A DNA stretch of 64,000 nucleotides, from the NCBI RefSeq assembly GCF_044324875.1, contig NZ_CP172185.1. One strand, written 5' to 3'. Both the position numbers and the translations under genes were made by a program. This document shows positions 8,551-36,683 of this stretch, one piece after another. The notes under the pieces were generated by a model. It was not told the DNA's origin, searched no databases, and worked only from the letters and a program-made list of their open reading frames with translations. The stretch comes from Escherichia coli (lineage in GTDB: Bacteria; Pseudomonadota; Gammaproteobacteria; Enterobacterales; Enterobacteriaceae). How positions within the stretch are numbered: the first letter of the stretch is position 1; each line of letters starts with the position of its first letter.

Positions 8551-8556
8551 AACAGG

Positions 8557-12350: not shown

Positions 12351-12352
12351 CC

Positions 12353-13339
12353 GTGAACAGACGTAATTTTATCAAAGCAGCCTCCTGCGGGGCATTGCTG
12401 ACGGGCGCGTTGCCGTCTGTCAGTCATGCGGCTGCTGAAAACCGCCCGCCAATTCCGGGATCGCTGGGGATGTTGTACGACTCGACCTTGTGCGTTGGCT
12501 GCCAGGCTTGCGTCACCAAGTGTCAGGATATCAATTTCCCTGAACGTAACCCGCAAGGGGAACAGACCTGGTCGAACAACGACAAACTGTCGCCGTATAC
12601 CAATAACATCATTCAGGTGTGGACCAGCGGCACAGGGGTCAACAAAGACCAGGAAGAGAACGGCTACGCGTACATTAAGAAACAGTGTATGCACTGCGTC
12701 GATCCGAACTGTGTCTCCGTGTGTCCGGTCTCTGCGCTGAAAAAAGATCCGAAAACCGGCATTGTCCATTACGACAAAGATGTGTGCACTGGCTGCCGTT
12801 ACTGCATGGTCGCCTGCCCATACAACGTGCCGAAGTACGACTACAACAACCCATTTGGTGCGCTGCATAAGTGTGAACTGTGCAACCAGAAAGGTGTGGA
12901 ACGTCTTGATAAAGGCGGTCTGCCTGGCTGCGTAGAAGTGTGCCCGGCGGGCGCGGTGATTTTTGGTACGCGTGAAGAGCTGATGGCTGAGGCGAAAAAA
13001 CGTCTGGCGCTGAAGCCAGGCAGCGAATACCACTATCCGCGTCAGACGCTGAAATCTGGCGACACTTACCTGCATACGGTGCCGAAATATTATCCGCATC
13101 TGTACGGCGAGAAAGAGGGCGGCGGTACTCAGGTTCTGGTACTGACGGGTGTGCCTTATGAAAATCTCGACCTGCCGAAACTGGACGATCTTTCTACCGG
13201 TGCGCGTTCCGAAAATATTCAACACACCCTGTATAAAGGCATGATGCTACCACTGGCTGTGCTGGCGGGCTTAACCGTGCTGGTTCGTCGCAACACCAAA
13301 AACGACCATCACGACGGAGGAGACGATCATGAGTCATGA
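12353..13339 (+). CDS. hybA: hydrogenase 2 ferredoxin-type 4Fe-4S subunit
   Basis: 328-aa ORF, GTG start, Tat motif RRNFIK, several CxxCxxCxxxCP motifs. Confidence 0.95.
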
Positions 13340-20777: not shown

Positions 20778-20792
20778 TACATGTTGTAGCAA

Positions 20793-20827
20793 CCCTGCAC
20801 TGATTATGAAGAATAATCAGTGCAGGG
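20793..20827. terminator. strong stem-loop downstream of gss (perfect 15-bp inverted repeat)
   Basis: CCCTGCACTGATTAT gaaga ATAATCAGTGCAGGG; no clear U-tract, so terminator function is uncertain. Confidence 0.35.
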
Positions 20828-21068
20828 ATTAATCAAAATATTCAATATTTATATATTCCAATATTTATTCATTTCATATGTGAATGTATTAACCAGTGGA
20901 ATACCTGTGTTTTGATTATTTCTAAAGGTTTTGAATGAATGCTTATTATCTGATACACAAGAAATAACACGCTTTTTATCGTTAAAAAATGATATTTCAC
21001 TTTGCCCACGCCGTTAAAGTCACTGATAATGCGTCCGTTCGTAAATTCAAAATGGCGTAATCTAATAT

Positions 21069-22568
21069 ATGCTAAATTTATTTGTTGGCCTTGATATATA
21101 CACGGGGCTTTTGTTATTACTTGCTCTGGCATTTGTGTTGTTCTACGAAGCAATCAATGGTTTTCATGATACGGCGAATGCGGTGGCAACCGTTATTTAT
21201 ACTCGTGCCATGCAACCACAACTTGCTGTGGTGATGGCGGCATTTTTTAACTTTTTTGGCGTATTGCTAGGCGGACTTAGCGTTGCCTATGCCATTGTCC
21301 ATATGTTGCCAACCGATTTGTTGCTGAATATGGGGTCAACTCACGGCCTGGCGATGGTCTTTTCCATGCTGCTGGCGGCGATTATCTGGAACCTGGGAAC
21401 GTGGTTCTTTGGTTTACCGGCCTCCAGTTCGCATACCTTGATTGGTGCGATTATCGGCATCGGTTTAACCAACGCGCTGTTAACCGGCTCATCGGTGATG
21501 GATGCGTTAAACCTGCGTGAAGTGACCAAAATTTTCTCCTCGCTGATTGTTTCCCCTATCGTCGGCCTGGTCATTGCGGGAGGTCTGATATTCCTGCTGC
21601 GCCGCTACTGGAGCGGGACGAAAAAGCGTGACCGTATTCACCGCATTCCGGAAGATCGCAAAAAGAAAAAAGGCAAACGTAAGCCACCATTCTGGACGCG
21701 TATTGCGCTGATTGTTTCCGCTGCGGGCGTGGCGTTTTCGCACGGCGCGAACGACGGGCAGAAAGGGATCGGCCTGGTGATGCTGGTACTGGTGGGGATT
21801 GCTCCTGCTGGTTTCGTCGTCAATATGAATGCGTCCGGCTATGAAATTACCCGTACCCGCGATGCCGTCACCAACTTTGAACACTATCTGCAACAGCATC
21901 CTGAACTGCCGCAGAAGTTAATTGCGATGGAACCTCCATTGCCTGCGGCATCGACTGATGGCACGCAAGTAACGGAGTTTCATTGTCATCCGGCAAATAC
22001 CTTTGATGCGATTGCGCGCGTTAAAACGATGTTGCCAGGTAATATGGAAAGCTACGAGCCGTTAAGCGTGAGTCAGCGCAGCCAGCTGCGCCGCATTATG
22101 CTGTGCATCTCTGATACCTCTGCGAAGCTGGCGAAACTGCCAGGCGTCAGTAAAGAAGATCAGAACCTGCTGAAAAAACTGCGCAGCGATATGTTAAGCA
22201 CCATTGAGTACGCTCCGGTGTGGATCATCATGGCGGTAGCACTGGCGCTCGGCATTGGTACCATGATTGGCTGGCGTCGTGTAGCGATGACCATCGGTGA
22301 GAAGATTGGTAAGCGCGGCATGACGTATGCGCAAGGGATGGCGGCGCAGATGACGGCGGCGGTATCTATCGGCCTTGCCAGTTATATTGGGATGCCTGTT
22401 TCCACAACACACGTCCTCTCGTCTGCGGTAGCAGGGACGATGGTGGTGGACGGCGGTGGGTTACAGCGTAAAACGGTAACCAGCATCCTGATGGCGTGGG
22501 TGTTTACTTTACCGGCGGCGATTTTTCTGTCTGGTGGGTTGTACTGGATAGCATTGCAGTTGATTTAA
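21069..22568 (+). CDS. pitB: low-affinity inorganic phosphate transporter (PiT family)
   Basis: 499-aa polytopic [51 protein letters not shown]... Confidence 0.9.
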
Positions 22569-22578
22569 CCTTCCTGAA

Positions 22579-22612
22579 AATGCCCGGTCCTGGCGATCGG
22601 GCATTTCCATTT
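22579..22612. terminator. hairpin between convergent pitB and yghT
   Basis: ATGCCCG ...13 nt... CGGGCAT followed by TTTCCATTTTT. Confidence 0.4.
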
Positions 22613-22616
22613 TTGG

Positions 22617-23309
22617 CTAGTGATAACCACGCGCGGTCATAAAATCCGTAATCGCTTTTTCTGCATCAACCAGCACCTTTTCCAGTGGCTGATTGGCATC
22701 GATATCAACCAGTTGTGCACCACCAAAGGTTAACTGTGGCGTTATTGCAATCTTCCTCGCCAGCGATTCCCGTTTATGGTCGGGTTTACGCGCGCAGGCA
22801 ACTTCAAGGTCAACATTGAGTTTGATGACCAGATCAGGTTTATGGCTCGCCATCCAGTGAAACGCTTTACGTTCCTGGCTTGCCAGCCATGAGACAAACC
22901 GGCCGCCTTCAACGTTAGGCGGGAACACTGTACCATCGTAAGCGCCAGGAATTTGGTCCTGAGGATAACGGTCGGTTAGAACAATTAACCCGCGACGACG
23001 ACAGGCAAGCATATGACGAAAGCGCAGTAAGCGACGGGCGACAAACGCTGTAATTACCAGCGCCGGAACAGGGCCAGGCAATTTTTTTGCTGTTTTCACC
23101 TGATTTCGTTCAATTGTTTTATGTAAGGATTTTCCCATCAACGGTAATTTTGTCACTGCACGACCGACATTTCCGGCCTGTTTTCCTAAATGAACTCTTT
23201 CGGCTGCACCATATTTTTCGACAACGGTAATGAGATGTTCACACACCGTTGACTTGCCTGAACCATCGCTACCAATAACGGCAATTAATGGAGGTGTTAT
23301 TGACTGCAT
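22617..23309 (-). CDS. yghT: P-loop NTPase/kinase-like protein of unknown substrate
   Basis: 230-aa ORF; Walker [10 protein letters not shown]; shares DRYPQ and ARKPDH motifs with the two proteins below. Confidence 0.85.
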
Positions 23310-23482
23310 GAATATATCCTTTAATTTAAATATCCATTAAAAATATTTATTTGGTTAATATGTTTTTATGAAAGCGTAATTCAGGTCAATGTCACAATTA
23401 ACCATTGTCACAATAAGGTTGAACGGATATTCTGAGCACGGACCACGTAATATTCAATACATTATTTGCTGCCGGGTTTTTC

Positions 23483-24196
23483 GTGAATCAACGTAATATG
23501 TCAATAATTAATTCCACGCCAGTGCGTGTTATTGCCATTGTAGGATGTGATGGTTCAGGTAAATCGACCCTCACGGCAAGCCTGGTAAATGAACTGGCAG
23601 CAAGAATGCCAACAGAACACATTTATCTCGGGCAATCGTCCGGGCGAATTGGCGAATGGATTTCACAGCTCCCTGTTATTGGCGCACCTTTTGGGCGTTA
23701 TCTGCGAAGTAAAGCGGCACATGTGCACGAAAAGCCCTCAACACCGCCTGGCAATATTACTGCGCTGGTTATCTATCTGCTTTCCTGCTGGCGGGCGTAT
23801 AAGTTTCGCAAAATGTTGTGTAAAAGCCAGCAAGGCTATCTGCTCATCACCGACCGCTACCCGCAGGTTGAAGTGCCGGGTTTTCGCTTTGATGGCCCGC
23901 AATTGGCAAAAACCACGGGCGGTAACGGTTGGATAAAAATGTTAAGGCAGCGCGAGCTGAAGCTGTACCAATGGATGGCGTCTTATTTGCCCGTATTGTT
24001 GATTCGTCTTGGCATTGATGAACAAACGGCGTTTGCGCGTAAACCTGACCACCAACTGGCGGCGTTACAGGAAAAAATCGCCGTTACGCCGCAACTGACA
24101 TTCAATGGCGCAAAGATCCTTGAACTGGATGGTCGGCAACCAGCCGATGAAATTATGCAAGCGTCACTACGCGCAATTCACGCCGCGCTTTCCTGA
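23483..24196 (+). CDS. yghS: P-loop NTPase/kinase-like protein (paralogue of YghT/YghR)
   Basis: 237-aa ORF (GTG start as printed; alternative ATG 15 nt downstream at MSIINSTP); Walker A GCDGSGKST. Confidence 0.85.
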   Translation: MNQRNMSIINSTPVRVIAIVGCDGSGKSTLTASLVNELAARMPTEHIYLGQSSGRIGEWISQLPVIGAPFGRYLRSKAAHVHEKPSTPPGNITALVIYLLSCWRAYKFRKMLCKSQQGYLLITDRYPQVEVPGFRFDGPQLAKTTGGNGWIKMLRQRELKLYQWMASYLPVLLIRLGIDEQTAFARKPDHQLAALQEKIAVTPQLTFNGAKILELDGRQPADEIMQASLRAIHAALS

Positions 24197-24227
24197 TCAC
24201 CAAAATGGATAGGGGATGATTTAACGA

Positions 24228-24986
24228 ATGGATGCACTACAAACACAAACTGTTAATAGTACAACCGCGCCGCAGCCCAACTACATTCCGGGGCTGATTG
24301 CGGTGGTCGGGTGTGATGGCACCGGTAAATCCACGCTGACCACCGACCTGGTGAAATCGCTGCAACAACACTGGCAAACCGAGCGCCGCTATCTGGGGCT
24401 GCTCTCCGGCGAAGACGGCGACAAAATCAAACGATTGCCGTTGGTTGGCGTCTGGCTGGAACGGCGACTGGCGGCCAAATCCTCGAAAACCCAAAGCATG
24501 AAAACCAAATCTCCAGCGCTATGGGCGGCGGTGATTATGTACTGCTTCTCGCTGCGAAGAATGGCGAATCTACGCAAGGTTCAGCGACTGGCGCAAAGTG
24601 GCGTTCTGGTGGTCAGCGATCGCTTCCCGCAGGCTGAAATTTCGGGCTTTTATTATGACGGACCGGGGATCGGCGTCGAACGTGCGACCGGGAAAATCAG
24701 CATGTTTCTGGCGCAGCGCGAACGGCGTTTATACCAAAAAATGGCGCAATACCGTCCTGAATTAATCATTCGTTTGGGGATTGATATTGATACTGCCATC
24801 TCCCGCAAGCCTGACCATGACTATGCCGAGCTGCAGGACAAAATCGGCGTCATGTCGACGATTGGCTATAACGGCACAAAAATTCTTGAGATTGATTCCA
24901 GAGCGCCCTACAGCGAAGTGCTGGAACAGGCACAGAAGGCGGTTTCTCTGGTTGCCATCGTTTCTGACCGCCGAAGTTTAACTTAA
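24228..24986 (+). CDS. yghR: P-loop NTPase/kinase-like protein (paralogue of YghS/YghT)
   Basis: 252-aa ORF; Walker A GCDGTGKST, DRFPQ, SRKPDH. Confidence 0.85.
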   Translation: MDALQTQTVNSTTAPQPNYIPGLIAVVGCDGTGKSTLTTDLVKSLQQHWQTERRYLGLLSGEDGDKIKRLPLVGVWLERRLAAKSSKTQSMKTKSPALWAAVIMYCFSLRRMANLRKVQRLAQSGVLVVSDRFPQAEISGFYYDGPGIGVERATGKISMFLAQRERRLYQKMAQYRPELIIRLGIDIDTAISRKPDHDYAELQDKIGVMSTIGYNGTKILEIDSRAPYSEVLEQAQKAVSLVAIVSDRRSLT

Positions 24987-25031
24987 GGCTGGCGGGATAC
25001 TTTTTACTATCAACGATAAGGTCAGGCTGAA

Positions 25032-26381
25032 TTGGCGGGTTTTAACATCAAACATTGGTTTGCAGATGGCGCGTTTCGCACCATTATTCGCAATAGCGCC
25101 TGGTTAGGCTCCAGTAATGTCGTGAGCGCCTTGCTGGGTCTGTTGGCGCTCTCGTGTGCCGGTAAAGGGATGACGCCCGCCATGTTTGGCGTACTGGTGA
25201 TTGTGCAATCGTACGCCAAGTCGATCAGCGATTTTATTAAGTTTCAGACATGGCAGTTGGTGGTGCAGTACGGAACACCAGCATTAACCAACAATAATCC
25301 ACAGCAATTCCGCAATGTCGTCTCATTTTCCTTCTCGCTGGATATCGTCAGCGGCGCGGTGGCGATTGTCGGCGGCATTGCCTTACTCCCTTTTCTTTCC
25401 CATTCATTAGGTCTGGATGACCAAAGCTTTTGGCTGGCAGCGCTGTATTGCACGCTCATTCCTTCAATGGCTTCCTCCACGCCGACCGGCATTCTGCGTG
25501 CGGTAGATCGCTTCGACTTAATTGCTGTACAGCAGGCGACGAAACCTTTTCTGCGCGCAGCGGGGAGCGTCGTTGCCTGGTATTTTGACTTTGGTTTTGC
25601 GGGTTTTGTTATTGCCTGGTACGCCTCGAATCTTGTTGGCGGCACCATGTACTGGTGGTTTGCCGCACGTGAATTACGCCGCAGAAATATCCATAACGCG
25701 TTCAAATTGAATCTGTTTGAGTCTGCCCGACACATCAAAGGCGCGTGGAGTTTTGTCTGGTCAACCAACATTGCCCATTCCATCTGGTCGGCGCGTAATT
25801 CGTGCAGCACAGTGTTGGTGGGGATCGTGTTAGGACCCGCTGCCGCCGGGTTATTTAAAATCGCCATGACATTCTTCGACGCCGCCGGAACGCCAGCGGG
25901 TTTACTGGGCAAAAGTTTTTACCCAGAGGTGATGCGTTTAGATCCGCGTACCACCAGACCGTGGTTGTTAGGCGTGAAGTCAGGTTTACTGGCGGGCGGA
26001 ATCGGTATTCTGGTGGCGCTCGCGGTGTTGATCGTCGGCAAGCCGCTCATTTCGCTGGTGTTTGGCGTTAAGTATCTCGAAGCGTATGACCTGATTCAGG
26101 TGATGCTGGGCGCAATTGTGATCTCGATGCTGGGCTTCCCTCAGGAGTCATTGCTATTGATGGCGGGAAAACAGCGCGCTTTTCTCGTGGCGCAAACCAT
26201 CGCCTCAATCGGCTACATCGTATTGCTGTTCATGTTCTGTCATCTGTTTGGCGTGCTGGGGGCTGCATTTGCTTACTTCGGTGGGCAATGTCTGGATGTG
26301 GTGTTCTCGCTAATTCCGACCTTAAAGGCATTTTTTCAGCGCCATTCCTTGCTTTATAACTCAGCCGGAGAGAAATCCTGA
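25032..26381 (+). CDS. yghQ: Wzx/MurJ-like (MOP superfamily) polytopic membrane protein, putative lipid-linked substrate flippase
   Basis: Track ORF is 449 aa with a TTG start; first in-frame ATG about 46 codons in (MTPAMFGVLV). Longer than the 355-aa K-12 YghQ I remember. Start uncertain. Confidence 0.75.
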   Translation: MAGFNIKHWFADGAFRTIIRNSAWLGSSNVVSALLGLLALSCAGKGMTPAMFGVLVIVQSYAKSISDFIKFQTWQLVVQYGTPALTNNNPQQFRNVVSFSFSLDIVSGAVAIVGGIALLPFLSHSLGLDDQSFWLAALYCTLIPSMASSTPTGILRAVDRFDLIAVQQATKPFLRAAGSVVAWYFDFGFAGFVIAWYASNLVGGTMYWWFAARELRRRNIHNAFKLNLFESARHIKGAWSFVWSTNIAHSIWSARNSCSTVLVGIVLGPAAAGLFKIAMTFFDAAGTPAGLLGKSFYPEVMRLDPRTTRPWLLGVKSGLLAGGIGILVALAVLIVGKPLISLVFGVKYLEAYDLIQVMLGAIVISMLGFPQESLLLMAGKQRAFLVAQTIASIGYIVLLFMFCHLFGVLGAAFAYFGGQCLDVVFSLIPTLKAFFQRHSLLYNSAGEKS

Positions 26382-27217
26382 TGATGAGAAAATATTTCCC
26401 GCTTGAGGCGAGCGAGCGTCTATTTGTTGCGATTGAAGAAGATGATGTTGTTGATGCACAGGTCAGTTTGCCGCCGACTATCGCACTAAGTTGTACCACC
26501 GAAATCATCCATGATAATTACGCGTTATGCCTGCAATTCTGGCTCAATGGCGTCAATCGCCAGGAGTTACTGCGTTTAATATGCAAACAGGCCAAAGGCG
26601 ATGAGCTGACTGCTGATGAGCGCAAACAATTTAAATACATGCGAGCGCGCTACAAGCACCTGCGTTTTGCGCAACGGCTGTATTTAAAAAAGCATCAGGC
26701 CGGATTTTTATTCGGCAAAACGACCGTTTTTTTGGGGCGTTTTCAGGACGGCTTTCGTAACGGTAAGAAAAATATTGTGTCGTATTACGGCAACCTGTTA
26801 CGGGTTTATTTAAGCTCTCCGGTCTGGTCGTTGGTGAACTATTCATTACGCCATAGCCAGTTAGAAAGCGTAAGCGGTTTTATTGCCTATCGGCAAAAGC
26901 AAATGCATACCCTGAAAGAGATAATTGCCAAACCGCGACTAACTGGCAGGGAATTTCATGATGTGCGAAAAATCATCAGCCAGCAGGTTTCTTATTACGA
27001 CACCTTAAGATCGCTTGATCCTGAAAATAAAGAGGCGTTACTGATTTCCCGTTTTCTCGCCGCCATTAATGGTCTGATGGGGGATAAGCACGACGACATG
27101 GTGGCGGATGATATGGAAAACCGCCAGTCGTATGATGCACCGGTGGCGCTGGATAGCGATATTCGCCAGCGTTTAGAACTGCTGATTTCGCGTTTCCCAC
27201 TCTATCCGGAGCAATAA
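26381..27217 (+). CDS. hypothetical soluble protein, 278 aa, basic and predicted helical
   Basis: ATG overlaps yghQ stop (ATGA) with GGAGAGAAA Shine-Dalgarno; no family recognised. Confidence 0.6.
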   Translation: MMRKYFPLEASERLFVAIEEDDVVDAQVSLPPTIALSCTTEIIHDNYALCLQFWLNGVNRQELLRLICKQAKGDELTADERKQFKYMRARYKHLRFAQRLYLKKHQAGFLFGKTTVFLGRFQDGFRNGKKNIVSYYGNLLRVYLSSPVWSLVNYSLRHSQLESVSGFIAYRQKQMHTLKEIIAKPRLTGREFHDVRKIISQQVSYYDTLRSLDPENKEALLISRFLAAINGLMGDKHDDMVADDMENRQSYDAPVALDSDIRQRLELLISRFPLYPEQ

Positions 27218-27777
27218 TGCCATCTCGTTGGATTTTCGCTCTGATCATCGCACTCTTAGCGCCAGGCGCGGTGGCACACAATTTCGTCACTGGCAAAACG
27301 GTTACCCCTGTTTATATCCAGGAAGGCGGTGAGTTGCTTCTGAAAAGCGACGACGAAATTCACTACCAAAAGTGGAACAGCACACAGCTGGCGGGAAAAG
27401 TTCGCATTATTCAGTATATCGCCGGGCGTAAGTCGGCGAAGAAAAAGAACTCACTGTTAATTAAAGCGGTTGAAGCGGCAAACTTTCCGCAGGATCGTTT
27501 TCAGCCCACCACCATTGTGAACACCGATGATGCCATTTTTGGTACTGGCTATTTTGTCGTTGGCAAAATCGAAAAAAATAAACGCCGCTATCCGTGGGCG
27601 CAATTCGTTATTGACGGCAATGGACAGGGACGCGTTGCCTGGCGGTTGCCGGAGCAGAGTTCAACCATTCTGGTGCTGAATAAAGACGGGCAAATTCAGT
27701 GGGCAAAGGACGGCAGCCTGACGCCGGAAGAGGTAGATCATGTCATTGCGCTGGCGCAGAAACTGATCAATGAATAA
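27217..27777 (+). CDS. secreted/periplasmic protein, YtfJ-like, 186 aa
   Basis: N-terminal signal peptide MPSRWIFALIIALLAPGAVA; start overlaps previous stop (TAATG); resemblance to YtfJ is from memory. Confidence 0.55.
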   Translation: MPSRWIFALIIALLAPGAVAHNFVTGKTVTPVYIQEGGELLLKSDDEIHYQKWNSTQLAGKVRIIQYIAGRKSAKKKNSLLIKAVEAANFPQDRFQPTTIVNTDDAIFGTGYFVVGKIEKNKRRYPWAQFVIDGNGQGRVAWRLPEQSSTILVLNKDGQIQWAKDGSLTPEEVDHVIALAQKLINE

Positions 27778-27807
27778 AAAATTCAAAGGATTGAGGGCGT
27801 TAGCGAG

Positions 27808-28878
27808 ATGAAGCTGGTTGAACACTACATCATGCGTGGTACGCGCCGTCTGGTGTTGATTATCGTCGGTTTTCTGATCTTTATTTTCGCCAGCTACTCC
27901 GCACAGCGTTATCTGACCGAAGCGGCAAATGGGACATTAGCTCTTGATGTTGTGCTGGATATCGTTTTCTACAAAGTGCTGATTGCACTGGAGATGTTGT
28001 TACCTGTTGGACTGTATGTGTCAGTTGGCGTGACGCTAGGGCAGATGTATACCGATTCGGAAATTACCGCTATCTCTGCGGCGGGGGGCAGTCCGGGACG
28101 CTTGTACAAAGCCGTTCTTTATCTGGCGATACCGCTAAGTATTTTTGTCACCCTTCTGTCGATGTATGGTCGTCCGTGGGCTTATGCGCAGATTTATCAA
28201 CTGGAGCAACAGTCACAGTCGGAGCTGGATGTTCGCCAGTTGCGGGCAAAGAAATTTAACACTAACGATAACGGACGAATGATCCTTTCCCAGACGGTTG
28301 ATCAGGATAATAATCGCCTGACTGACGCGCTGATTTATACTTCTACTGCCAATCGAACCCGCATTTTCCGCGCCCGTTCGGTTGATGTGGTTGACCCATC
28401 TCCCGAGAAACCGACCGTTATGTTGCACAACGGGACAGCCTATCTTCTCGATCATCAGGGGCGTGACGACAACGAACAGATCTACCGTCATCTGCAATTA
28501 CATCTGAATCCGCTGGATCAAAGCCCTAACGTCAAACGCAAAGCGAAATCGGTCACGGAGCTGGCGCGCTCCGTCTTTCCAGCCGATCATGCCGAACTGC
28601 AATGGCGACAAAGCCGTGGCCTGACAGCATTGTTGATGGCGCTGCTGGCCATTTCATTAAGTCGGGTAAAACCGCGGCAAGGGCGATTTTCAACATTATT
28701 GCCACTGACGTTGCTGTTTATTGCCATTTTTTATGGCGGCGACGTCTGCCGTACGCTGGTGGCTAACGGCGCGATTCCCCTCATTCCTGGTTTGTGGTTA
28801 GTACCCGGACTCATGCTAATGGGCCTGCTGATGCTGGTCGCACGCGACTTCTCTTTGCTGCAGAAATTTTCCCGATGA
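27808..28878 (+). CDS. YjgP/YjgQ-family permease (LptF-like paralogue)
   Basis: 356-aa ORF with N-terminal TM cluster, long periplasmic middle region and C-terminal TM helices, the LptF/LptG architecture. Confidence 0.7.
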   Translation: MKLVEHYIMRGTRRLVLIIVGFLIFIFASYSAQRYLTEAANGTLALDVVLDIVFYKVLIALEMLLPVGLYVSVGVTLGQMYTDSEITAISAAGGSPGRLYKAVLYLAIPLSIFVTLLSMYGRPWAYAQIYQLEQQSQSELDVRQLRAKKFNTNDNGRMILSQTVDQDNNRLTDALIYTSTANRTRIFRARSVDVVDPSPEKPTVMLHNGTAYLLDHQGRDDNEQIYRHLQLHLNPLDQSPNVKRKAKSVTELARSVFPADHAELQWRQSRGLTALLMALLAISLSRVKPRQGRFSTLLPLTLLFIAIFYGGDVCRTLVANGAIPLIPGLWLVPGLMLMGLLMLVARDFSLLQKFSR

Positions 28879-29954
28879 ATGTTTTCAGTCGCTATTTAAT
28901 CCGTCATCTCTTTCTCGGTTTTGCCGCCGCCGCAGGGCTATTGCTGCCGCTTTTTACCACCTTCAACCTGATTAACGAACTGGATGATGTCAGCCCGGGT
29001 GGTTATCGCTGGACTCAGGCGGTGCTGGTGGTGCTGATGACCTTACCGCGCACACTGGTCGAACTTTCGCCGTTTATCGCATTATTGGGAGGGATTGTTG
29101 GCCTGGGGCAGTTATCGAAAAACAGTGAGCTTACCGCCATTCGCAGCACGGGGTTTTCTATCTTCCGTATTGCACTAGTGGCGCTGGTTGCCGGGATATT
29201 TTGGACTGTTTCGTTAGGCGCGATAGATGAGTGGGTGGCGTCGCCATTGCAGCAACAGGCGCTGCAAATCAAATCGACTGCCACCGCGTTGGGGGAGGAC
29301 GATGACATTACCGGCAATATGCTTTGGGCCAGGCGCGGTAATGAATTTGTGACGGTGAAATCGCTGAACGAGCAGGGCCAGCCTGTGGGCGTGGAGATAT
29401 TTCATTATCGCGACGATCTCTCGCTCGAATCCTACATTTTTGCACGCAGTGCCTCCATTGAAGACGACAAAACGTGGATCCTGCATGGTGTGAATCATAA
29501 AAAATGGTTGAATGGCAAAGAAACGCTGGAAACATCAGATAATCTTGCCTGGCAATCGGCCTTCACCAGTATGAATCTTGAAGAGTTATCGATGCCGGGA
29601 AATACTTTTTCTGTCCGTCAACTTAATCATTACATCCATTATTTGCAGGAAACTGGGCAACCCAGCAGCGAATACCGCCTTGCACTGTGGGAAAAACTGG
29701 GACAACCCATCCTGACCCTGGCGATGATTTTGCTGGCTGTGCCGTTTACCTTTAGTGCCCCGCGTTCGCCTGGGATGGGTAGCCGTCTCGCTGTAGGCGT
29801 CATCGTGGGCTTACTTACCTGGATCAGCTATCAAATCATGGTCAATCTGGGATTGCTATTTGCGTTGAACGCACCTGTTACCGCGCTCGGTTTACCGGTA
29901 GCGTTTGTGCTGGTGGCGTTGAGCCTGGTGTATTGGTATGACAGACAACATTAA
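28875..29954 (+). CDS. YjgP/YjgQ-family permease (LptG-like paralogue)
   Basis: Track ORF 28794..29954 is over-extended; start MNVFSRYLIRHLFLGF overlaps the upstream stop (ATGA), giving 359 aa with LptG-like topology. Confidence 0.7.
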   Translation: MNVFSRYLIRHLFLGFAAAAGLLLPLFTTFNLINELDDVSPGGYRWTQAVLVVLMTLPRTLVELSPFIALLGGIVGLGQLSKNSELTAIRSTGFSIFRIALVALVAGIFWTVSLGAIDEWVASPLQQQALQIKSTATALGEDDDITGNMLWARRGNEFVTVKSLNEQGQPVGVEIFHYRDDLSLESYIFARSASIEDDKTWILHGVNHKKWLNGKETLETSDNLAWQSAFTSMNLEELSMPGNTFSVRQLNHYIHYLQETGQPSSEYRLALWEKLGQPILTLAMILLAVPFTFSAPRSPGMGSRLAVGVIVGLLTWISYQIMVNLGLLFALNAPVTALGLPVAFVLVALSLVYWYDRQH

Positions 29955-29988
29955 ACCCGCCGTGGCGCAACACCACAGCGGGCTCACA

Positions 29989-31161
29989 TTACTGCTTCAG
30001 AGTAGCGAACGCTTGAATGATGGCATCAATTTGCTCACGACTGTGGGCAGCGTTTACGCTACAGCGCAGCAGCGTGATGCCTGCAGGCGCGGCAGGTGGC
30101 AGGATAAGATTCACATAAACGCCCAGCGAAATAAGCTCGCGCCAGATGCGTAAACCTTCCTCTTTCGAACCGATTATTACTGGCACTACCGGGCTAATAT
30201 GTGAACTTAACTCATAACCCAGTTTTTGCAGACCGTCATACAGATGGTTGGCATTATCCATCAGCTTTTGCCGCAACTCTGGTTGTGTAGCAATGGTTCT
30301 TAACGACGAGCGCACGGTCGCAATGCAGGACGGAGAAGGAGAGGCGGTAAAAATATACGGGCGGCTGCCGTAGCGCAGCACTTCCATCGCTTCCGAACCG
30401 ACAGCAAAACCGCCAATCGAGGCCAGACTTTTACTGAAAGTACCAACGATAATATCCACATCATCTTCAACGCCAACGGCTTCAGCCAGTCCGCGCCCCG
30501 TTGCGCCTAACACGCCAAACGAATGCGCTTCATCGACAATCAAATAACCACCGAGACGACGTTTGATATCAACAATTTCCGCCAGCGGCGCAACGTCACC
30601 GAGCATACTGTAGATGCCTTCAACGATGATAATCGCCTCTTTTGCCCGTTCACCGAGGCGAACCATGCGCCGTTCCAGATCTTTAGCATCGTTATGGCGG
30701 AAACGAATAATTTCCGCGCCACCGAGAGAACAGGCGTCATAAATACTGGCGTGGCTGTCGGCATCCAGTAACACCACGGCGTTATGGTCGGCAAGTGCGC
30801 TGATGACGCCTAAATTAGCGGTATAACCGGTTGAAAAAACGATAGCGGTAGGGCGATTAAAAAACTCGGCGATCTCTTTCTCTAACGCCAGATGCGGCGC
30901 ATAACTGCCGTTTGCCATACGAGAACCGGTGGTGCCGGTGCCTTGGGCCGCTAACGCTGCCTGACCTTCGGCGATGGCATCATGATTGAAGGTTAATCCG
31001 AGATAATTATTGGTCCCGGCCAGAATCACTTTTTTATTGCCGATCCGGCCTTCGGTGGCGGAATACACTTCATCAATACAGGTACCAAACGGCGTTAACC
31101 CGTTGTCACTAAATTGCAGTCGCTCGCCAGCAAGACGCGCATATTTATCGTATAGCCCCAT
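29989..31161 (-). CDS. PLP-dependent alpha-oxoamine synthase, serine-palmitoyltransferase-like
   Basis: 390 aa; motifs DEAHSFG and VGTFSKSLASIGGF (PLP lysine about residue 244, codon near 30430..30432). Confidence 0.8.
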   Translation of the reverse strand: MGLYDKYARLAGERLQFSDNGLTPFGTCIDEVYSATEGRIGNKKVILAGTNNYLGLTFNHDAIAEGQAALAAQGTGTTGSRMANGSYAPHLALEKEIAEFFNRPTAIVFSTGYTANLGVISALADHNAVVLLDADSHASIYDACSLGGAEIIRFRHNDAKDLERRMVRLGERAKEAIIIVEGIYSMLGDVAPLAEIVDIKRRLGGYLIVDEAHSFGVLGATGRGLAEAVGVEDDVDIIVGTFSKSLASIGGFAVGSEAMEVLRYGSRPYIFTASPSPSCIATVRSSLRTIATQPELRQKLMDNANHLYDGLQKLGYELSSHISPVVPVIIGSKEEGLRIWRELISLGVYVNLILPPAAPAGITLLRCSVNAAHSREQIDAIIQAFATLKQ

Positions 31162-31409
31162 TATTTATTCTCCAGCCATGGAAGTAGTGTTTCCATTAAT
31201 TGCGCAGGGGTTTTGACATCCAGCAGAATATTAATAGGAATGGAAATATCGAATCTGTCTTCCAGCATCATTAAGAGATCCATCACTTTGATCGACTCCA
31301 GGCCAAGATCGTTGACGAGATCGCTGTCGGGCTTAATTTCCACACCGTTTTCGACCAAATCCTGTAAACAGGAAAGGATGTAATCCATTACTATTTCACG
31401 ATTTACCAT
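31161..31409 (-). CDS. acyl carrier protein (dedicated, 82 aa)
   Basis: Small acidic protein with DLGLESIKVMDL (candidate phosphopantetheine serine); stop overlaps the downstream synthase start. Confidence 0.7.
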   Translation of the reverse strand: MVNREIVMDYILSCLQDLVENGVEIKPDSDLVNDLGLESIKVMDLLMMLEDRFDISIPINILLDVKTPAQLMETLLPWLENK

Positions 31410-31440
31410 AGAAACGTTAACACACCTTTAAACAAGACAA

Positions 31441-32355
31441 TCAAAATAGCCCGTTGCGTAATGCGTGTTCCAGGCTAATCCCGGGAAACCAATTAATATC
31501 TTCAGAAATACGGTTATTACTTGCTGACCAGTCGGCGTGGGTTAATTCACGGATTTTCGAGCGGGTCAGCATAGGTTCTTTACCTGCCAGGCGACTCAAC
31601 GTGGTACTGATATCCGCAAGGCAGGTGAGTACCGACAGAGGAATACCAACCATTCGAACGGAACCACAACGGGCGTCGGCGGCAAGCTGTCTTACGCGTT
31701 GCCAGTCATAGCCGCCGGCGACGCCATCGCATAATTCATAGGTTTGCGTCTGTACAGTTTCGGCGCTTAACCACTGCCCCACGGCTTGCGCGAAATCGGT
31801 GACGTGCAGGAAAGAGAGCTGTGTATCTGGCGCACCAAGTCGTGGCAGTAGGCCGCGCAGCATCCAGTCAAACAGCGGTTTTAACTCTTTATCGCCGGGA
31901 CCATACACGGCTGTCGGGCGAAAAATGCCCAGCGTAATTTCGTCAGCCATTGCGGTCAGTCGTTGTTCGGCGACGTGTTTGGAATTTGCGTACCAGGAGA
32001 GTTCGGGATGGCGCGCCGCCAGCGAAGAGATAAACAGAAAACGTTGGCAAAAGCCGCTCTCTTTTGCCGCTTGCATCAGGCGCAGGCTGCCGTCAACGTT
32101 ACAGCGGGTAAAAATCTCTTCTTTGTGTCCGCGCACTTGTCCGGCGCAATGGACCACCGCGCTGGCTCCGGCAACCAGTTCGCTAAGCGAATGTGTATCT
32201 TCCAGCGAACCGCGCACCCAGATGAGATTATCATTGACGTGAGCGCGGGCAGTACGCGTCAATGCGCGAACGTGAAAGCCGCGGGCGAGCAGGTTATCGA
32301 TAATATATTTACCGATAAACCCGGTAGCGCCCGTCACCGCGACAGTTTGATTCAT
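31441..32355 (-). CDS. NAD(P)-dependent epimerase/dehydratase-family (extended SDR) oxidoreductase, putative keto-reductase
   Basis: 304 aa; Rossmann VTGATGFIGKYI, catalytic YANSK; start overlaps upstream ligase stop by 4 nt. Confidence 0.75.
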   Translation of the reverse strand: MNQTVAVTGATGFIGKYIIDNLLARGFHVRALTRTARAHVNDNLIWVRGSLEDTHSLSELVAGASAVVHCAGQVRGHKEEIFTRCNVDGSLRLMQAAKESGFCQRFLFISSLAARHPELSWYANSKHVAEQRLTAMADEITLGIFRPTAVYGPGDKELKPLFDWMLRGLLPRLGAPDTQLSFLHVTDFAQAVGQWLSAETVQTQTYELCDGVAGGYDWQRVRQLAADARCGSVRMVGIPLSVLTCLADISTTLSRLAGKEPMLTRSKIRELTHADWSASNNRISEDINWFPGISLEHALRNGLF

Positions 32356-34073
32356 GCCAGGGATTCCTGCACATGAAGGCTTGCAGCATAAGCCTTCTGA
32401 TAGCGTTTTTTCGCTTCCGCACGGGCAGGCTTGCCGGAGGACGTTCGGGGAATACTGTGGGGCGGCAACAGATCGATAGCCGCGGTCACGCCAAATTCGC
32501 TTTGGATCCGTGCTGCCAGCGCGTGGATAAGCTGCCCGCGACGTTCTTCATCGCTGATCCGACACTGGATCTGCAAAATGATTTTTTCCTGGGCGGTAAC
32601 AAAAGCAATCGCATCGCCAGAATGAATTTCCGGTTCCTGTTCCGCAATATATTCAATATCTTGCGGCCAGATATTGCGGCCACGAATAATAATCAGATCT
32701 TTAATGCGTCCGGTGACATACAGATAACCGTCCAGCAGATAACCGAGGTCGCCGGTGTCTAACCAGCCCGTCGCGGCAATCTCGTCTTGTGAAATCTGGT
32801 CGCCAAAGTAACCGCTCATCAGGCTAGGGCCGGAGATGCAAATATGGCCTACCACACGTTCCGCGACAGGTATACCTGCTTCATTGCGGATTTCAATGCC
32901 ATGTTCCGGCAACGCTTTACCGCAGTTGACGAAAGTCGATACGGCGCGTGTTTCAGCATCCGGCGCGACGGCTTTGCCCTGATATTCGAGGATGTCGCGA
33001 TCCACTTCGTTAACCACAACCCCGGAAGCTTCATCAGAGAAGCTGACAGCCAGCGCATTTTCTGCCAGTCCGTAGCACGGCATGAACGTTTTATCGTCAA
33101 AGTTAACCTGACGAAAACATTCAGCGAATTGATGGAGTTGTTCTGCGGAGATCGGTTCTGCGCCAATACCAGCGACGCGCCAGCAGGAAAGATCCAGTTC
33201 AGCGAGATCTTTTTCATTCACGCGGCGCTGGCACAATTCATAGCCAAACGGCGGCGCAACGGAAACGGTGCCGCGATTTTTACTGATCAATTTAAGCCAT
33301 TGCAGAGGACGCATGGCAAAATCCTGAGTGCGCAAATAATCTACTGAGAGCTGCGTGGCGACGGGGGTCAGGAGAAAGCCGACCAGTCCCATATCATGGT
33401 AGAAAGGCAGCCAGGAGACGCAGCGGTCGCCAGGGCGTAATTTAATGCCATCGTGGCTTATAGCACGTAGATTAGCCATCACTTCGCGATGGGTGATAAT
33501 GACGCCACGGGGAAAACGGGTGCTGCCGGAGGTGTACTGGAGGTAGGCGATATCGTTCGGAACTGGACGCTGGAGTGCAACATCGGCTTCCGGTAATGCC
33601 TTAAACCAGGCGTGGCTTAAAACATGTAATTCGGGTTTGTTATGCGTCGCGGCATTGACCAGCGGTAACCACTCATCACCAGTGATAATGGCTGCGGGCT
33701 GGCAACTTGCCAGTAAACCCTGCAGTTTGGCGCTCCAGGAATCCCGCTGACCGACGCCCATTGGAATCGCCAACGGGACGGCGACTAAGCCGGCATACTG
33801 GCAGGAAAAAAAAGCCTCTACGAACCCGCTACTGGTTTCGGCAATCAGCGCCACGCGATCGCCTTTTTTCAGGTTCAGCGATAACAACCGCTTCGCACCA
33901 GCTTCGGCACGCGCTTTTAACGTCTGATATTCCAGTTGATCTTCAAGTTGGCAACGTCTGTCATAAAAATTCATTCCGGCGCTACTCAGAGCGGCGTAGT
34001 CCAAAGCATCAACCAGCGTTGGAAAATCGGCATAGCGCATAGGTAGGGAATGCGTAAAGATTTTATTAGACAT
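32352..34073 (-). CDS. fatty acyl-AMP ligase / acyl-ACP synthetase-type adenylating enzyme
   Basis: Track ORF 32352..34100 (582 aa); AMP-binding motif YTSGSTRFPRGV. Start uncertain (candidates at 34100, 34073, 34040); 34073 ATG chosen. Confidence 0.75.
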   Translation of the reverse strand: MSNKIFTHSLPMRYADFPTLVDALDYAALSSAGMNFYDRRCQLEDQLEYQTLKARAEAGAKRLLSLNLKKGDRVALIAETSSGFVEAFFSCQYAGLVAVPLAIPMGVGQRDSWSAKLQGLLASCQPAAIITGDEWLPLVNAATHNKPELHVLSHAWFKALPEADVALQRPVPNDIAYLQYTSGSTRFPRGVIITHREVMANLRAISHDGIKLRPGDRCVSWLPFYHDMGLVGFLLTPVATQLSVDYLRTQDFAMRPLQWLKLISKNRGTVSVAPPFGYELCQRRVNEKDLAELDLSCWRVAGIGAEPISAEQLHQFAECFRQVNFDDKTFMPCYGLAENALAVSFSDEASGVVVNEVDRDILEYQGKAVAPDAETRAVSTFVNCGKALPEHGIEIRNEAGIPVAERVVGHICISGPSLMSGYFGDQISQDEIAATGWLDTGDLGYLLDGYLYVTGRIKDLIIIRGRNIWPQDIEYIAEQEPEIHSGDAIAFVTAQEKIILQIQCRISDEERRGQLIHALAARIQSEFGVTAAIDLLPPHSIPRTSSGKPARAEAKKRYQKAYAASLHVQESLA

Positions 34074-34444
34074 ATACACCACGAAAAAATTGGATATCAA
34101 AAATAAAATGACAATAATGCGGTGGATTATATAGGCATAAAAGATAAATGAGATAGTATTTTCATCAGTGTGAAAATGAACATTGATTTAAATAATGAGT
34201 TTGAGTTTTTTTGTTTTTATTGTGAATGATATTTAATTTATGAATGTATTAAGAAGAAGCCTTGTCCGGTCGCCTTAAATCGACAAAAGGCATTGTGGCG
34301 CTTCTGTGTAGTCTCTGACCTTATCGTAATCATTAATAAATACTATTTATTCGTCGTTTGTATTCATTGGGTTGATTATTAAGGTGCCGTTCGTTGCTGT
34401 TGCAACCTGTTTGTCACCGTTAATTATTTGTTACCCACAGAACT
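34074..34444. promoter_or_regulatory. AT-rich divergent control region between the ligase operon and yghO
   Basis: About 370 bp non-coding and strongly AT-rich, between divergently oriented starts. Confidence 0.45.
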
Positions 34445-35587
34445 ATGGAATGCGATCTGCTGATGATTAAAATTGAAAAAGTAATTAATAAAAATGACCT
34501 TAAGGCATTTATCGCTTTTCCGTCATCACTTTATCCCGACGATCCAAACTGGATACCCCCTTTATTCATTGAACGCAACGAGCATTTGTCTGCGAAAAAT
34601 CCGGGGACGGACCATATCATCTGGCAGGCGTGGGTGGCAAAAAAAGCAGGGCAGATAGTTGGGCGTATTACCGCGCAAATCGATACCTTGCACCGCGAGC
34701 GTTACGGCAAAGATACCGGTCATTTCGGCATGATTGACGCCATTGATGATCCGCAGGTTTTTGCCGCGTTGTTTGGCGCAGCGGAAGCGTGGTTGAAGTC
34801 ACAAGGTGCAAGTAAGATCAGCGGTCCTTTCAGCCTGAATATCAATCAGGAAAGCGGATTACTGATTGAAGGTTTCGATACACCACCCTGTGCGATGATG
34901 CCACACGGCAAACCGTGGTATGCCGCGCATATTGAACAATTGGGTTATCACAAAGGCATTGATTTACTGGCGTGGTGGATGCAGCGAACCGATCTCACTT
35001 TCTCTCCGGCCCTAAAAAAACTGATGGATCAGGTGCGCAAAAAAGTGACCATTCGCTGCATCAATCGCCAGCGGTTTGCCGAAGAGATGCAGATCCTGCG
35101 TGAGATTTTCAACTCTGGCTGGCAGCATAACTGGGGATTTGTGCCGTTTACCGAACATGAGTTCGCGACTATGGGCGATCAGCTTAAGTACCTGGTGCCG
35201 GACGATATGATCTACATCGCCGAGATTGATTCTGCACCCTGTGCGTTTATTGTCGGCTTACCGAACATCAACGAGGCGATTGCCGATCTGAACGGATCGC
35301 TCTTTCCCTTCGGCTGGGCAAAATTGCTGTGGCGTTTAAAAGTCAGCGGTGTGCGAACTGCGCGAGTACCGCTGATGGGCGTGCGGGACGAGTATCAGTT
35401 TAGCCGCATCGGCCCGGTGATTGCGCTGTTATTGATTGAAGCCTTACGCGATCCGTTTGCCCGCCGGAAGATCGATGCGCTGGAAATGTCATGGATCCTC
35501 GAAACCAATATAGGCATGAATAACATGCTGGAACGCATTGGGGCGGAGCCGTACAAGCGTTACCGATTGTATGAAAAGCAGATTTAA
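34445..35587 (+). CDS. yghO: YghO-family protein, predicted acyl-CoA N-acyltransferase-like fold (intact here)
   Basis: 380-aa ORF MECDLLMIKIEKVINKNDLKAFIAFPSS... adjacent to glcC as yghO is in K-12; fold assignment is from memory. Confidence 0.65.
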   Translation: MECDLLMIKIEKVINKNDLKAFIAFPSSLYPDDPNWIPPLFIERNEHLSAKNPGTDHIIWQAWVAKKAGQIVGRITAQIDTLHRERYGKDTGHFGMIDAIDDPQVFAALFGAAEAWLKSQGASKISGPFSLNINQESGLLIEGFDTPPCAMMPHGKPWYAAHIEQLGYHKGIDLLAWWMQRTDLTFSPALKKLMDQVRKKVTIRCINRQRFAEEMQILREIFNSGWQHNWGFVPFTEHEFATMGDQLKYLVPDDMIYIAEIDSAPCAFIVGLPNINEAIADLNGSLFPFGWAKLLWRLKVSGVRTARVPLMGVRDEYQFSRIGPVIALLLIEALRDPFARRKIDALEMSWILETNIGMNNMLERIGAEPYKRYRLYEKQI

Positions 35588-35607
35588 TACCAGATCCTGT
35601 TAAGCGC

Positions 35608-35656
35608 AGGGGCGATCCCTCGCCCCTCGGGGAAAGGGTTAGGGTGAGGGTGAAAA
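35608..35656. repeat. GC-rich palindromic intergenic element between convergent yghO and glcC
   Basis: AGGGGCGA tccc TCGCCCCT perfect dyad followed by GGGGAAAGGGTTAGGGTGAGGGTG. Confidence 0.4.
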
Positions 35657-35662
35657 CTCGGC

Positions 35663-36433
35663 TCACATTCCCACCTTGTTCATCTCCAGCGGCACCGCCG
35701 AGCGAATCAAATGGTGGCCTTCCAGCTCGATATCGTGGAGATTCTTTTTCACGGTCCGCACATGATCGCGTGCTGCGCGCTGGGCGACGTGCGGCAGCCG
35801 CTGCAACACCGCGTTGTAGATCCGCGCATGCTGGCGATCGATCTGCTTTTTTTGCTGTGGTCGATGGTAGAGATTATTTACGCTGGCAAACACTGAATTA
35901 AACATCAGATCGGTCAATGATTGCAGCGTAAACACCAACACCTGATTGTGAGAAGCCTGACAAATGGCGAGATGGAAAGCGTGATCCAACTGCGCATGTT
36001 CGATCAGCGAAATCTCTTTGTTGTTCTCACTGGCGGCGAGCATTTTTTCATAACAGCGGGTTATCACAACAAAATCAGCCTGGGTTCCCAGCGTTGCCGC
36101 AAGCCTTGCCGATTCACCCTCCAGCAATGCGCGAACGTCGAGCAGATCGTACAGCGTTCGCGGCTGCGTGCTGAACAGATGAATTAGCGGGCTGGTGTCC
36201 TGCACCCGATTAAGCCGTGCGACACGAGAATCGCGACCCTGCGCCGTTTCAATAATCCCGCGCCCGCGCAGCACGGTCAGCCCTTCACGCAGTGCGGAGC
36301 GTGAGAAGCCGAGCTTTTCACACAGTCGACGTTCCGAGGGAAGCGGCTGACCGACCTTCAGTACGCCGTCGATAATTAACCGTTCGATACTCTCTGCAAC
36401 CACTTCGCAAATAGGGCGACGTTCATCTTTCAT
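35663..36433 (-). CDS. glcC: GntR/FadR-family transcriptional activator of the glycolate operon
   Basis: Start MKDERRPICEVVAESIERLIIDGVLKVGQPLPSERRL (codon 21 of track ORF). Confidence 0.9.
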   Translation of the reverse strand: MKDERRPICEVVAESIERLIIDGVLKVGQPLPSERRLCEKLGFSRSALREGLTVLRGRGIIETAQGRDSRVARLNRVQDTSPLIHLFSTQPRTLYDLLDVRALLEGESARLAATLGTQADFVVITRCYEKMLAASENNKEISLIEHAQLDHAFHLAICQASHNQVLVFTLQSLTDLMFNSVFASVNNLYHRPQQKKQIDRQHARIYNAVLQRLPHVAQRAARDHVRTVKKNLHDIELEGHHLIRSAVPLEMNKVGM

Positions 36434-36683
36434 TCCCGGACCTCGTGCACAGGTAGGACCAATTTTTCTGTTCTTGACTCGCAAAACACGCACATCACGT
36501 AAGTGATTATGTTACATCAATTTAACATTAAGTTAACCAAGACAAGGTCACAGAGCTGGAAAAAAAATGGTCTGACCGGTAGCTAAAGAGATAGACGAAA
36601 ACGAAAAGCCCGCTTAATAACTGTTCACAGAAGCAGCGCGCAAAAATCAGCTGCCACACAACACAACAAAGCGAAGCCTACTC
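36434..36683. promoter_or_regulatory. glcC / glcDEFGBA divergent promoter region
   Basis: 250-bp non-coding interval between divergent glcC and glcD; inference from position. Confidence 0.45.

Follow-up and report, generated by a model that had tools for sequence, protein, structure and literature searches.

The stretch of DNA analyzed here, a 64,000-nucleotide piece of an Escherichia coli genome (hereafter, the window), carries a 13-kb set of 13 open reading frames (ORFs) between pitB and glcC, at positions 22617–35587. It very probably represents a sphingolipid locus of E. coli, with ceramide synthesis, export, and a head-group step taken together as one explanation for the whole interval. 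All 13 ORFs have the order and orientation described in an earlier note on this DNA, as the ORF list reproduces the same map, and the same gene order is found in RefSeq-annotated E. coli genomes. The gene yghT lies on the minus strand; next come a plus-strand run (yghS-yghR-yghQ-orf278-YtfJ-like-LptF-like-LptG-like), a convergent minus-strand run (aasR-cerR-acpR-spt), and yghO, which is divergent from the minus-strand run. Within both operons, the intergenic gaps do not exceed 45 nt, or the genes overlap by 1–4 nt. The genes are as follows:

22617–23309, minus strand: yghT, first P-loop kinase paralogue, with a thymidylate kinase (TMPK)-like fold, divergent from yghS-yghR
23483–24196, plus strand: yghS, second P-loop kinase paralogue, opening the plus-strand operon
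24228–24986, plus strand: yghR, third P-loop kinase paralogue
25032–26381, plus strand: yghQ, candidate flippase of the MOP/Wzx type, with several hydrophobic membrane-spanning stretches
26381–27217, plus strand: orf278 (Ybl138), soluble, all-helical protein with a predicted CHAD (polyphosphate-binding) fold
27217–27777, plus strand: YtfJ-like gene, periplasmic protein of the YtfJ family with a signal-like N-terminal segment
27808–28878, plus strand: lptF2, LptF paralogue, candidate subunit of a sphingolipid extractor
28875–29954, plus strand: lptG2, LptG paralogue, the first 4 nt of which overlap the end of lptF2
29989–31161, minus strand: spt, serine palmitoyltransferase
31161–31409, minus strand: acpR, dedicated acyl carrier protein (ACP)
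31441–32355, minus strand: cerR, putative NAD(P)-dependent reductase of the 3-oxo group, from the short-chain dehydrogenase/reductase (SDR)/epimerase family
32352–34073 (longest ORF to 34100), minus strand: aasR, fatty acyl-AMP ligase loading AcpR
34445–35587, plus strand: yghO, homologue of the bacterial ceramide synthase (bCerS/Aca), candidate N-acyltransferase

According to our analysis, the α-oxoamine synthase of the locus is a serine palmitoyltransferase (SPT). It scored 600 bits against the NCBIfam model NF047599 (SPT of the betaproteobacterial type; cut-off 500), compared with 430 bits for the alphaproteobacterial SPT model, 334 bits for the bioF model, and 298 bits for the Kbl model; it remained below the respective cut-offs of the alphaproteobacterial SPT, BioF, Kbl, and ALAS models. 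Among solved structures, the Sphingomonas SPTs (S. paucimobilis) gave 377 bits, whereas Kbl and BioF gave approximately 204 and 180 bits, respectively. The motifs GTFSKS (containing the PLP lysine), DADSHASIYD, VDEAHS, and LLRCS were identical in the alignment to those of the S. paucimobilis SPT; the roles of the active-site residues are those of the structure 2JG2. The earlier note had named clustering of the synthase with BioF or Kbl, rather than with SPTs, as an outcome that would speak against its sphingolipid-like reading; the scores show no such clustering. In RefSeq, the synthase of E. coli genomes already bears the name spt.

The remaining enzymes of ceramide synthesis have counterparts in the pathway of Caulobacter (AasR, AcpR, CerR, and bCerS), which agrees with the roles that had been proposed for the ligase, the ACP, the SDR reductase, and YghO. 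The aasR product matched the fatty acyl-AMP ligase model NF006624 with 873 bits (cut-off 600), and an identity of 42% to Caulobacter AasR has been reported (Padilla-Gómez et al., 2022, PMC9386255). The acpR product matched ACP models, all with scores under the cut-offs; the gene lies directly upstream of spt in one operon, its stop and the spt start sharing a single base (31161). In the NCBIfam/Pfam search, the cerR product gave only generic NAD-epimerase/dehydratase matches, and no Pfam, NCBIfam, or PDB match was found for YghO, the relatives of which are named GNAT N-acetyltransferases and in some cases carry PF00583. PMC9386255 gives 34% identity between CerR and Caulobacter CC_1164 (E = 7e-38) and 44% identity between YghO and CC_1154, over 98% of the length of the latter (E = 1e-107).

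The earlier note knew of no product assigned to this locus; this did not hold, as an assignment of the pathway is already published (PMC9386255). The genes studied in that work, ECD_02850–02854 of strain BL21(DE3), and the operons of strain UTI89 represent the same locus in other strains; yghO, aasR, cerR, acpR, and spt were named and partly assayed. Biochemistry was published there for ECD_02851, ECD_02853, and ECD_02854, while ECD_02850 and ECD_02852 appear in tables of homologues, where ECD_02852 is assigned as the reductase and yghO (ECD_02850) as an N-acyltransferase/ceramide synthase homologue. According to the same work, AcpR-Ec from BL21(DE3) bears 4′-phosphopantetheine and is acylated by AasR-Ec, SPT-Ec prefers acyl-AcpR, and co-expression of Spt, AcpR, and AasR in BL21 yielded 3-oxo-sphinganine along with sphinganine-like and ceramide-like spots on thin-layer chromatography (TLC).

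These results also bear on the use of another amino acid (glycine, alanine, or cysteate) by the synthase, which would then produce a non-sphingoid aminolipid or a signaling ketone. Kbl, BioF, the CAI-1 synthase, and cysteate acyltransferase also belong to the α-oxoamine synthase family, and each of them matches the E. coli protein significantly. Such a specificity is nevertheless hardly credible, since the SPT model alone is above its cut-off among the models of the family, a gap of approximately 170 bits separates the Sphingomonas SPTs from the best non-SPT solved structure, and the E. coli enzyme, with AcpR and AasR, made 3-oxo-sphinganine in vivo (PMC9386255).

The plus-strand operon encodes the putative export functions. 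YghQ has a weak Pfam Polysacc_synt signature (E = 2.7e-8), an NCBIfam MOP flippase match at a weak score, and multiple hydrophobic membrane segments, in line with the MOP-type flippase proposed earlier; the signature is of the same type as that reported for Caulobacter CC_1166 (IPR002797). Both LptF2 (TIGR04407, 318 bits, cut-off 230) and LptG2 (TIGR04408, 304 bits, cut-off 240) exceed the curated equivalog cut-offs, and their adjacent genes are translationally coupled by the overlap noted above. They resemble the LptB2FG extractor of lipopolysaccharide (LPS) in these respects, but LptF2 is only a distant paralogue of the housekeeping E. coli LptF (96 bits, E = 3e-26), and its proposed cargo is a sphingolipid. 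Genetic and pull-down data on Caulobacter, in a preprint by Uchendu, Isom and Klein (2026), show that LptF2/G2 form a complex and bind the housekeeping LptB, and that the Lpt paralogues can be deleted only in the absence of spt. Figure 2B of the same preprint depicts the "sphingolipid operons" of E. coli UTI89, including lptF2/G2. Taken together, these data support the LptFG-like extractor suggested in the earlier note. The YtfJ-like protein matched TIGR01626 with 213 bits (cut-off 151) and has a hydrophobic N-terminus.

The three P-loop kinase-like proteins recognized earlier, YghT, YghS, and YghR, form a distinct family with a thymidylate kinase fold and preserved catalytic motifs. Their mutual identity is 34–40% (34–36% for YghT versus YghS and YghR), and they share the motifs GxDGxGKS, DR[YF]PQ (DRYPQ in YghT), and RKPDH. 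The P-loop, DR[YF]PQ, and RKPDH are kept in all three groups of orthologues: the DR[YF/W]PQ motif was preserved in 62/62 YghR, 58/58 YghS, and 77/82 YghT orthologues, and the motifs of YghT were found in 77–82 of its 82 orthologues. All three proteins lack membrane segments and have a positive net charge. Their relation to thymidylate kinase is one of superfamily membership only. The dTMP kinase models TIGR00041 and NF005923 gave 25–31 bits (25 for YghT) against cut-offs of 83 and 193, and no Pfam family was significant (Thymidylate_kin, E = 0.01 or worse). The RefSeq product name of yghT and yghS is "dTMP kinase," which looks like an over-annotation, given the 25 bits obtained against a cut-off of 83. 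The nearest solved folds to the AF2 model of YghR (pLDDT 89) are thymidylate kinases (TM 0.5–0.7), with ST1543 of S. tokodaii, a homologue of cPPK3 (the PPK3 system is described below), ranking third. A role of YghT/S/R as the ATPase of LptF2/G2 was considered and rejected, as they have the fold and motifs of nucleotide kinases (DRY, LID) and not the ABC fold.

A search of 1.84 billion representative proteins with the kinase profile revealed 2175 family members, and the names of the kinase representatives were just "thymidylate kinase" or "hypothetical." Tandem S-R fusions occur in other organisms (P0121 and P0122), and further fusions include P0164, P0169, P0172, P0180 (~500 aa), P0216 (978 aa), and P0256 (669 aa). 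In many family members, the kinase domain is joined to an N-terminal domain of ~260 aa that contains a "GETDxDLLV" motif and matches nothing in Pfam; in other cases, the partner is a MOP flippase (NCBIfam match) or, judging by the sequence, a glycosyltransferase. The genomic neighborhood of the fused relative P0164 was uninformative. In the literature, nothing was found that links yghQ, yghR, yghS, or yghT with sphingolipids, and the accessible parts of PMC9386255 and of the Uchendu, Isom and Klein (2026) preprint assign no role to YghT/S/R, Orf278, or the YtfJ-like protein.

The model of Orf278 (pLDDT 95) is all-helical, and its relatives in AFDB, with 26–41% identity and TM of at least 0.9, are named CHAD proteins. 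Neither its sequence nor its profile gave a match in PDB, and the sequence had no match in NCBIfam or in Pfam, PF05235 included, so that its identity is based on the comparison of folds; one relative, P0356, does have PF05235. The predicted structure has the CHAD fold, and the conserved residues include His, Arg, and Lys positions that are invariant in the alignment. CHAD domains are known as polyphosphate-binding modules (bioRxiv 10.1101/567040). The genera represented among the AFDB relatives are Sphingomonas, Zymomonas, Acetobacter, Gluconobacter, and Komagataeibacter, the first, second, and fourth of which are listed as Spt-bearing in PMC9386255. A literature search for CHAD proteins together with sphingolipids found nothing relevant. 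It was considered whether the kinase fusions of ~500 aa (P0164 and P0169) have Orf278 as their N-terminal domain; this was rejected, because BLAST revealed no similarity and Pfam found nothing in that domain. The metagenomic proteins P0271–P0276 (561–564 aa) have twice the length of Orf278 and approximately twice the single-domain bit score on its profile, and appear to be tandem CHAD-like duplications.

The combination of dTMP kinase-like paralogues with a CHAD protein recalls PPK3, a heteromer of two such paralogues encoded together with a CHAD protein, as in the operon of Sulfolobus acidocaldarius (saci_2019/2020 with the CHAD gene saci_2021; PMC12995831). It could be that YghS/YghR/YghT and Orf278 constitute a PPK3-like system that makes or consumes inorganic polyphosphate and does not act on the sphingolipid, being either a mere neighbor of the lipid genes or an indirect source of phosphoryl groups. 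Several features agree with this: yghS lies next to yghR, and the two are fused in some organisms; YghR has the dTMP kinase fold, with the cPPK3 homologue among its closest solved structures; and Orf278 has the CHAD fold. As in the case of PPK3, the proteins had been annotated as thymidylate kinases, and the organism has a separate true Tmk. On the other hand, E. coli has three paralogues rather than two, and all of them retain the DRx arginine, which is lost in the regulatory subunit of PPK3. The kinase family profile has no specific affinity to cPPK3, matching the canonical TMPKs in PDB (E = 6e-11) far better than ST1543 (E = 1e-4). PPX, SixA, and Pst genes are not found in the locus, and the kinases are syntenic with the flippase, LptF2/G2, and spt, that is, with genes of lipid synthesis and Lpt-type export and not with those of phosphate metabolism. 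Moreover, E. coli already possesses PPK1 and PPX. In view of the intact DRx, the TMPK-like sequence affinity, and the lack of PPX, SixA, and Pst genes nearby, membership in PPK3 is not supported, and we consider a polyphosphate system of this kind unlikely.

The linkage of these genes was assessed in a scan of GTDB with the kinase alignment as a query, in which each of ~100,000 species was represented by one genome. Neighbors were sought within the stored flanks of up to 10 kb on each side, and co-occurrence was counted from tblastn intervals, as the greedy ORF caller mis-called genes in high-GC loci. The scan yielded 79 loci from Enterobacterales, Xanthomonadales, Halioglobus, Nitrotoga, Methylotenera, Rhodocyclaceae, and others. 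The spt gene was found within the flanks of 41/44 Enterobacterales-like loci, and at least one of spt, cerR, yghQ, lptF2, lptG2, and the CHAD gene accompanied the kinases in 28/35 other loci (mostly of beta- and gammaproteobacteria). The three blocks of genes (the kinases with the flippase and the CHAD gene; lptF2G2; and the spt operon) are shuffled among the genera yet remain linked, and the divergent layout of yghT and yghS-yghR is kept in 60/65 loci with the kinase trio. The YtfJ-like gene was detected in 40/44 Enterobacterales-like loci and in 0/35 of the others; in the distant loci L058, L060, and L063, which were inspected, the same neighborhood includes a related protein of ~170 aa, with DUF2147 confirmed for L058.

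In distant loci, the neighbors are typical modifiers of phosphate-bearing envelope lipids: PAP2 phosphatases (LpxE-like and others), an LmtA-like methyltransferase of the lipid A 1-phosphate, an acyl hydroxylase resembling OlsC/LpxO, GT4 glycosyltransferases, LptA-like and ArnT-like proteins, and a periplasmic protein with DUF2147. A distant metagenomic contig (L084, positions 7516–14998) carries, in one direction, a DUF2141 gene and an operon that encodes two kinases, a homologue of YghQ (49% identity), and a CHAD-like protein (35%). Four other loci, of beta- and gammaproteobacteria (L058:11382–20372, L060:13254–20648, L062:12128–19717, and L046:14194–20670) contain a yghT-like gene and a small PAP2 phosphatase gene followed by a conserved set, which includes an outer-membrane factor-like gene, two proteins of ~1040 aa, and, in L058, a protein of ~405 aa. 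Judging by size and sequence, this set, which is not present in E. coli, looks like an MdtABC-type RND exporter. The loci of the Martelella alba record (L028) and of a metagenome-assembled genome of Pseudomonas sp. (L024) are Enterobacterales-like, with 54–79% protein identity to the E. coli genes, which suggests contamination, mis-binning, or recent transfer.

If the RefSeq names were taken literally, the locus would encode two dTMP kinases and a protein of LPS biosynthesis, along with another LptFG pair for LPS export, all unrelated to the spt operon. Apart from the product names themselves, this agrees with the scores of LptF2 and LptG2 above the LptF/LptG equivalog cut-offs. The kinases, in turn, do not approach the dTMP kinase cut-off, LptF2 is only distantly related to the housekeeping LptF, the linkage to spt persists across genera despite the shuffling of blocks, and in Caulobacter the deletion of the Lpt paralogues depends on the absence of spt (Uchendu, Isom and Klein, 2026 preprint). 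Therefore, the literal names are very improbable as a description of the locus.

Among the closest known systems is the Caulobacter crescentus locus CC_1152–CC_1168, which includes Spt, AcpR, AasR, CerR, bCerS, CpgA/B/C, LptF2/G2/C2, and the flippase CC_1166. The two loci share the five ceramide genes (cerR and yghO by homology), an acpR-spt operon, a Polysacc_synt-type flippase candidate, and a pair of LptF/LptG paralogues, and both lack an LptB of their own. The E. coli Spt differs in that it fits the betaproteobacterial SPT model best (see the scores above). In contrast to Caulobacter, E. coli lacks CpgB (the ceramide kinase of the LCB5 type), the Tam41-like CpgC, and the CDP-alcohol transferase CpgA, as well as the HIT protein, phosphoesterase, nucleotidyltransferases, and LptC2. 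Instead, it has the three paralogues with the thymidylate kinase fold, the CHAD-fold protein, and the YtfJ-family periplasmic protein, and YghT/S/R with Orf278 occupy the place of the head-group enzymes CpgA/B/C. As YghT/S/R are the only kinases in a locus without CpgA/B/C, are soluble and basic, and are linked with the flippase and the Lpt paralogues, we infer that they phosphorylate ceramide together with Orf278.

Based on these comparisons, the following pathway can be proposed. AasR adenylates a free fatty acid and loads it onto AcpR, and Spt condenses the acyl-AcpR with L-serine to 3-oxo-sphinganine; both steps have been shown for the BL21(DE3) proteins. By homology to the Caulobacter enzymes, the base would then be N-acylated by YghO and the 3-oxo group reduced by CerR, giving dihydroceramide. 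YghQ is a candidate for flipping the lipid across the inner membrane, and LptF2/LptG2 with the housekeeping LptB would extract it toward the outer membrane, as shown in Caulobacter. The soluble, basic YghT/S/R and Orf278 most likely attach one or more phosphates to the ceramide and handle them, and the product would be an anionic, lipid-A-like lipid of the outer membrane; the YtfJ-like protein is presumably a periplasmic accessory. The synthesis and export of an amino-lipid (sphingolipid-like), as read by the earlier note from the gene content, is thus supported by the model scores, the published biochemistry of BL21(DE3), and the export work on Caulobacter.

The resemblance to PPK3 suggests that the phosphate acceptor might itself be a phosphate, giving a pyrophosphate or oligophosphate head group. 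This leads to a bolder scenario, to which we give only a small chance: YghS/R/T and Orf278 could constitute a ceramide head-group machine parallel to PPK3, in which a pyrophosphate or short oligophosphate is formed and the chain is held by the CHAD protein. The result would be a highly anionic outer-membrane "phospho-ceramide" in E. coli and many beta- and gammaproteobacteria, flipped by YghQ and extracted by LptB2F2G2, with LpxE-like phosphatases and LmtA-like methyltransferases trimming or capping it in other taxa.

Several observations weigh against a sphingolipid locus in E. coli. No report of a native sphingolipid in this species was found in the literature, and BL21(DE3) with empty vectors showed no sphingolipid-like spots on TLC (PMC9386255); the locus may therefore be silent in the laboratory. 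The roles of CerR and YghO are based on homology, neither protein having a specific model match. In comparison with LptB2FG, the genes for the ATPase, LptC, and LptA are not found in the locus: the NCBIfam/Pfam search revealed no ABC ATPase (cognate LptB) among the 13 genes that could serve LptF2/G2, and LptC, LptA, or LptDE paralogues are also lacking. Just 9/35 non-enterobacterial loci have spt within the flanks. Finally, in L084, the CHAD-like gene is followed by genes for a PMT_2 protein resembling ArnT and for a lipid kinase of the CpgB type (DAGK_cat). Since the latter stands beside the kinase pair, the YghT/S/R family need not provide the first ceramide kinase. This gene set also indicates that both types of kinases can coexist.

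The lack of spots in the empty-vector strain is also consistent with the assumption that the E. coli locus is a silent evolutionary remnant, with no lipid made in nature. In addition, K-12-type strains have lost orf278 through aasR without obvious harm, about one-quarter of complete genomes do not carry at least 80% of the interval, and both divergent promoter regions (23310–23482 and 34074–34444) are AT-rich (41–45% GC in 1-kb windows over them, the GC content being otherwise ordinary for the region). Against this, all 13 ORFs are intact in the window, and 4051 of the 5426 complete E. coli genomes carry at least 80% of the interval with 95–99% identity (4821 carry some part of it). The dN/dS values versus Escherichia sp. 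E1V33 were 0.02–0.14 for 12 genes, and the value for yghO, which is not covered in the E1V33 locus, was 0.046 versus Serratia; these are comparable to the value for the neighboring pitB (0.015). The low dN/dS indicates that the genes are under purifying selection and are maintained rather than decaying. The gene set is also conserved in sequence and linkage in many genera of Enterobacterales, and a remnant is thus improbable, if somewhat less so than a misnamed LPS system.

In K-12-type genomes, yghT, yghS, yghR, a yghQ truncated at the 3′ end, an IS5 transposase gene, and yghO are retained, whereas the segment from orf278 through aasR is missing; this IS5-associated deletion explains why the standard laboratory strain lacks the pathway. 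An example is L081 (NZ_CP122317.1), in which positions 5416–8781 of the locus correspond approximately to 25032–35587 of the window. The truncated yghQ remnant has been described as a site of recurrent variant clusters in chlorhexidine-adapted K-12 isolates, and the deletion of yghQ as raising the minimum inhibitory concentration two-fold (PMC8170033); these variants adjoin IS5, so that mapping artefacts are possible. As for the surroundings of the interval, the upstream hyb-gss-pitB region was found in 5395 of the 5426 genomes, while the downstream glc-sslE-gsp (type II secretion) region (window 36000–60000) was present at the level of at least 80% in only 3159, which places the sphingolipid interval at the margin of a larger variable region.

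Three non-coding features were identified at the locus:

22578–22606, no strand assigned: strong hairpin at a convergent gene junction
23390–23414, plus strand: possible operator, a direct repeat TGTCACAAT-N7-TGTCACAAT located in the promoter region between the divergent genes yghT and yghS
29952–29986, no strand assigned: hairpin with a 16-bp stem where the convergent genes lptG2 and spt meet, probably a terminator acting in both directions

For the direct repeat, 0.05 matches are expected by chance, and its exact copy is limited to the Escherichia loci L001, L002, L004, L005, and L081. A Pho box, which was sought in the yghT-yghS intergenic region because pitB adjoins the interval, was rejected, since the spacing of the repeats is 16 bp and not 11. 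The counts of promoter and terminator consensus sequences showed no excess over the shuffled expectation, and only the two strong hairpins at convergent gene ends stood out; an Rfam scan of positions 20000–38000 found no RNA family.

E. coli is usually taught as a sphingolipid-free bacterium; yet, about three-quarters of the complete genomes carry an intact and selectively maintained locus for making and exporting such a lipid. Four of its genes, those for the three kinases and the CHAD protein, are the most likely determinants of the lipid head group. If this is true, an anionic sphingolipid of the outer membrane would have a bearing on the susceptibility to polymyxins and antiseptics, on recognition by the host, and on the choice of cargo by Lpt-type exporters.

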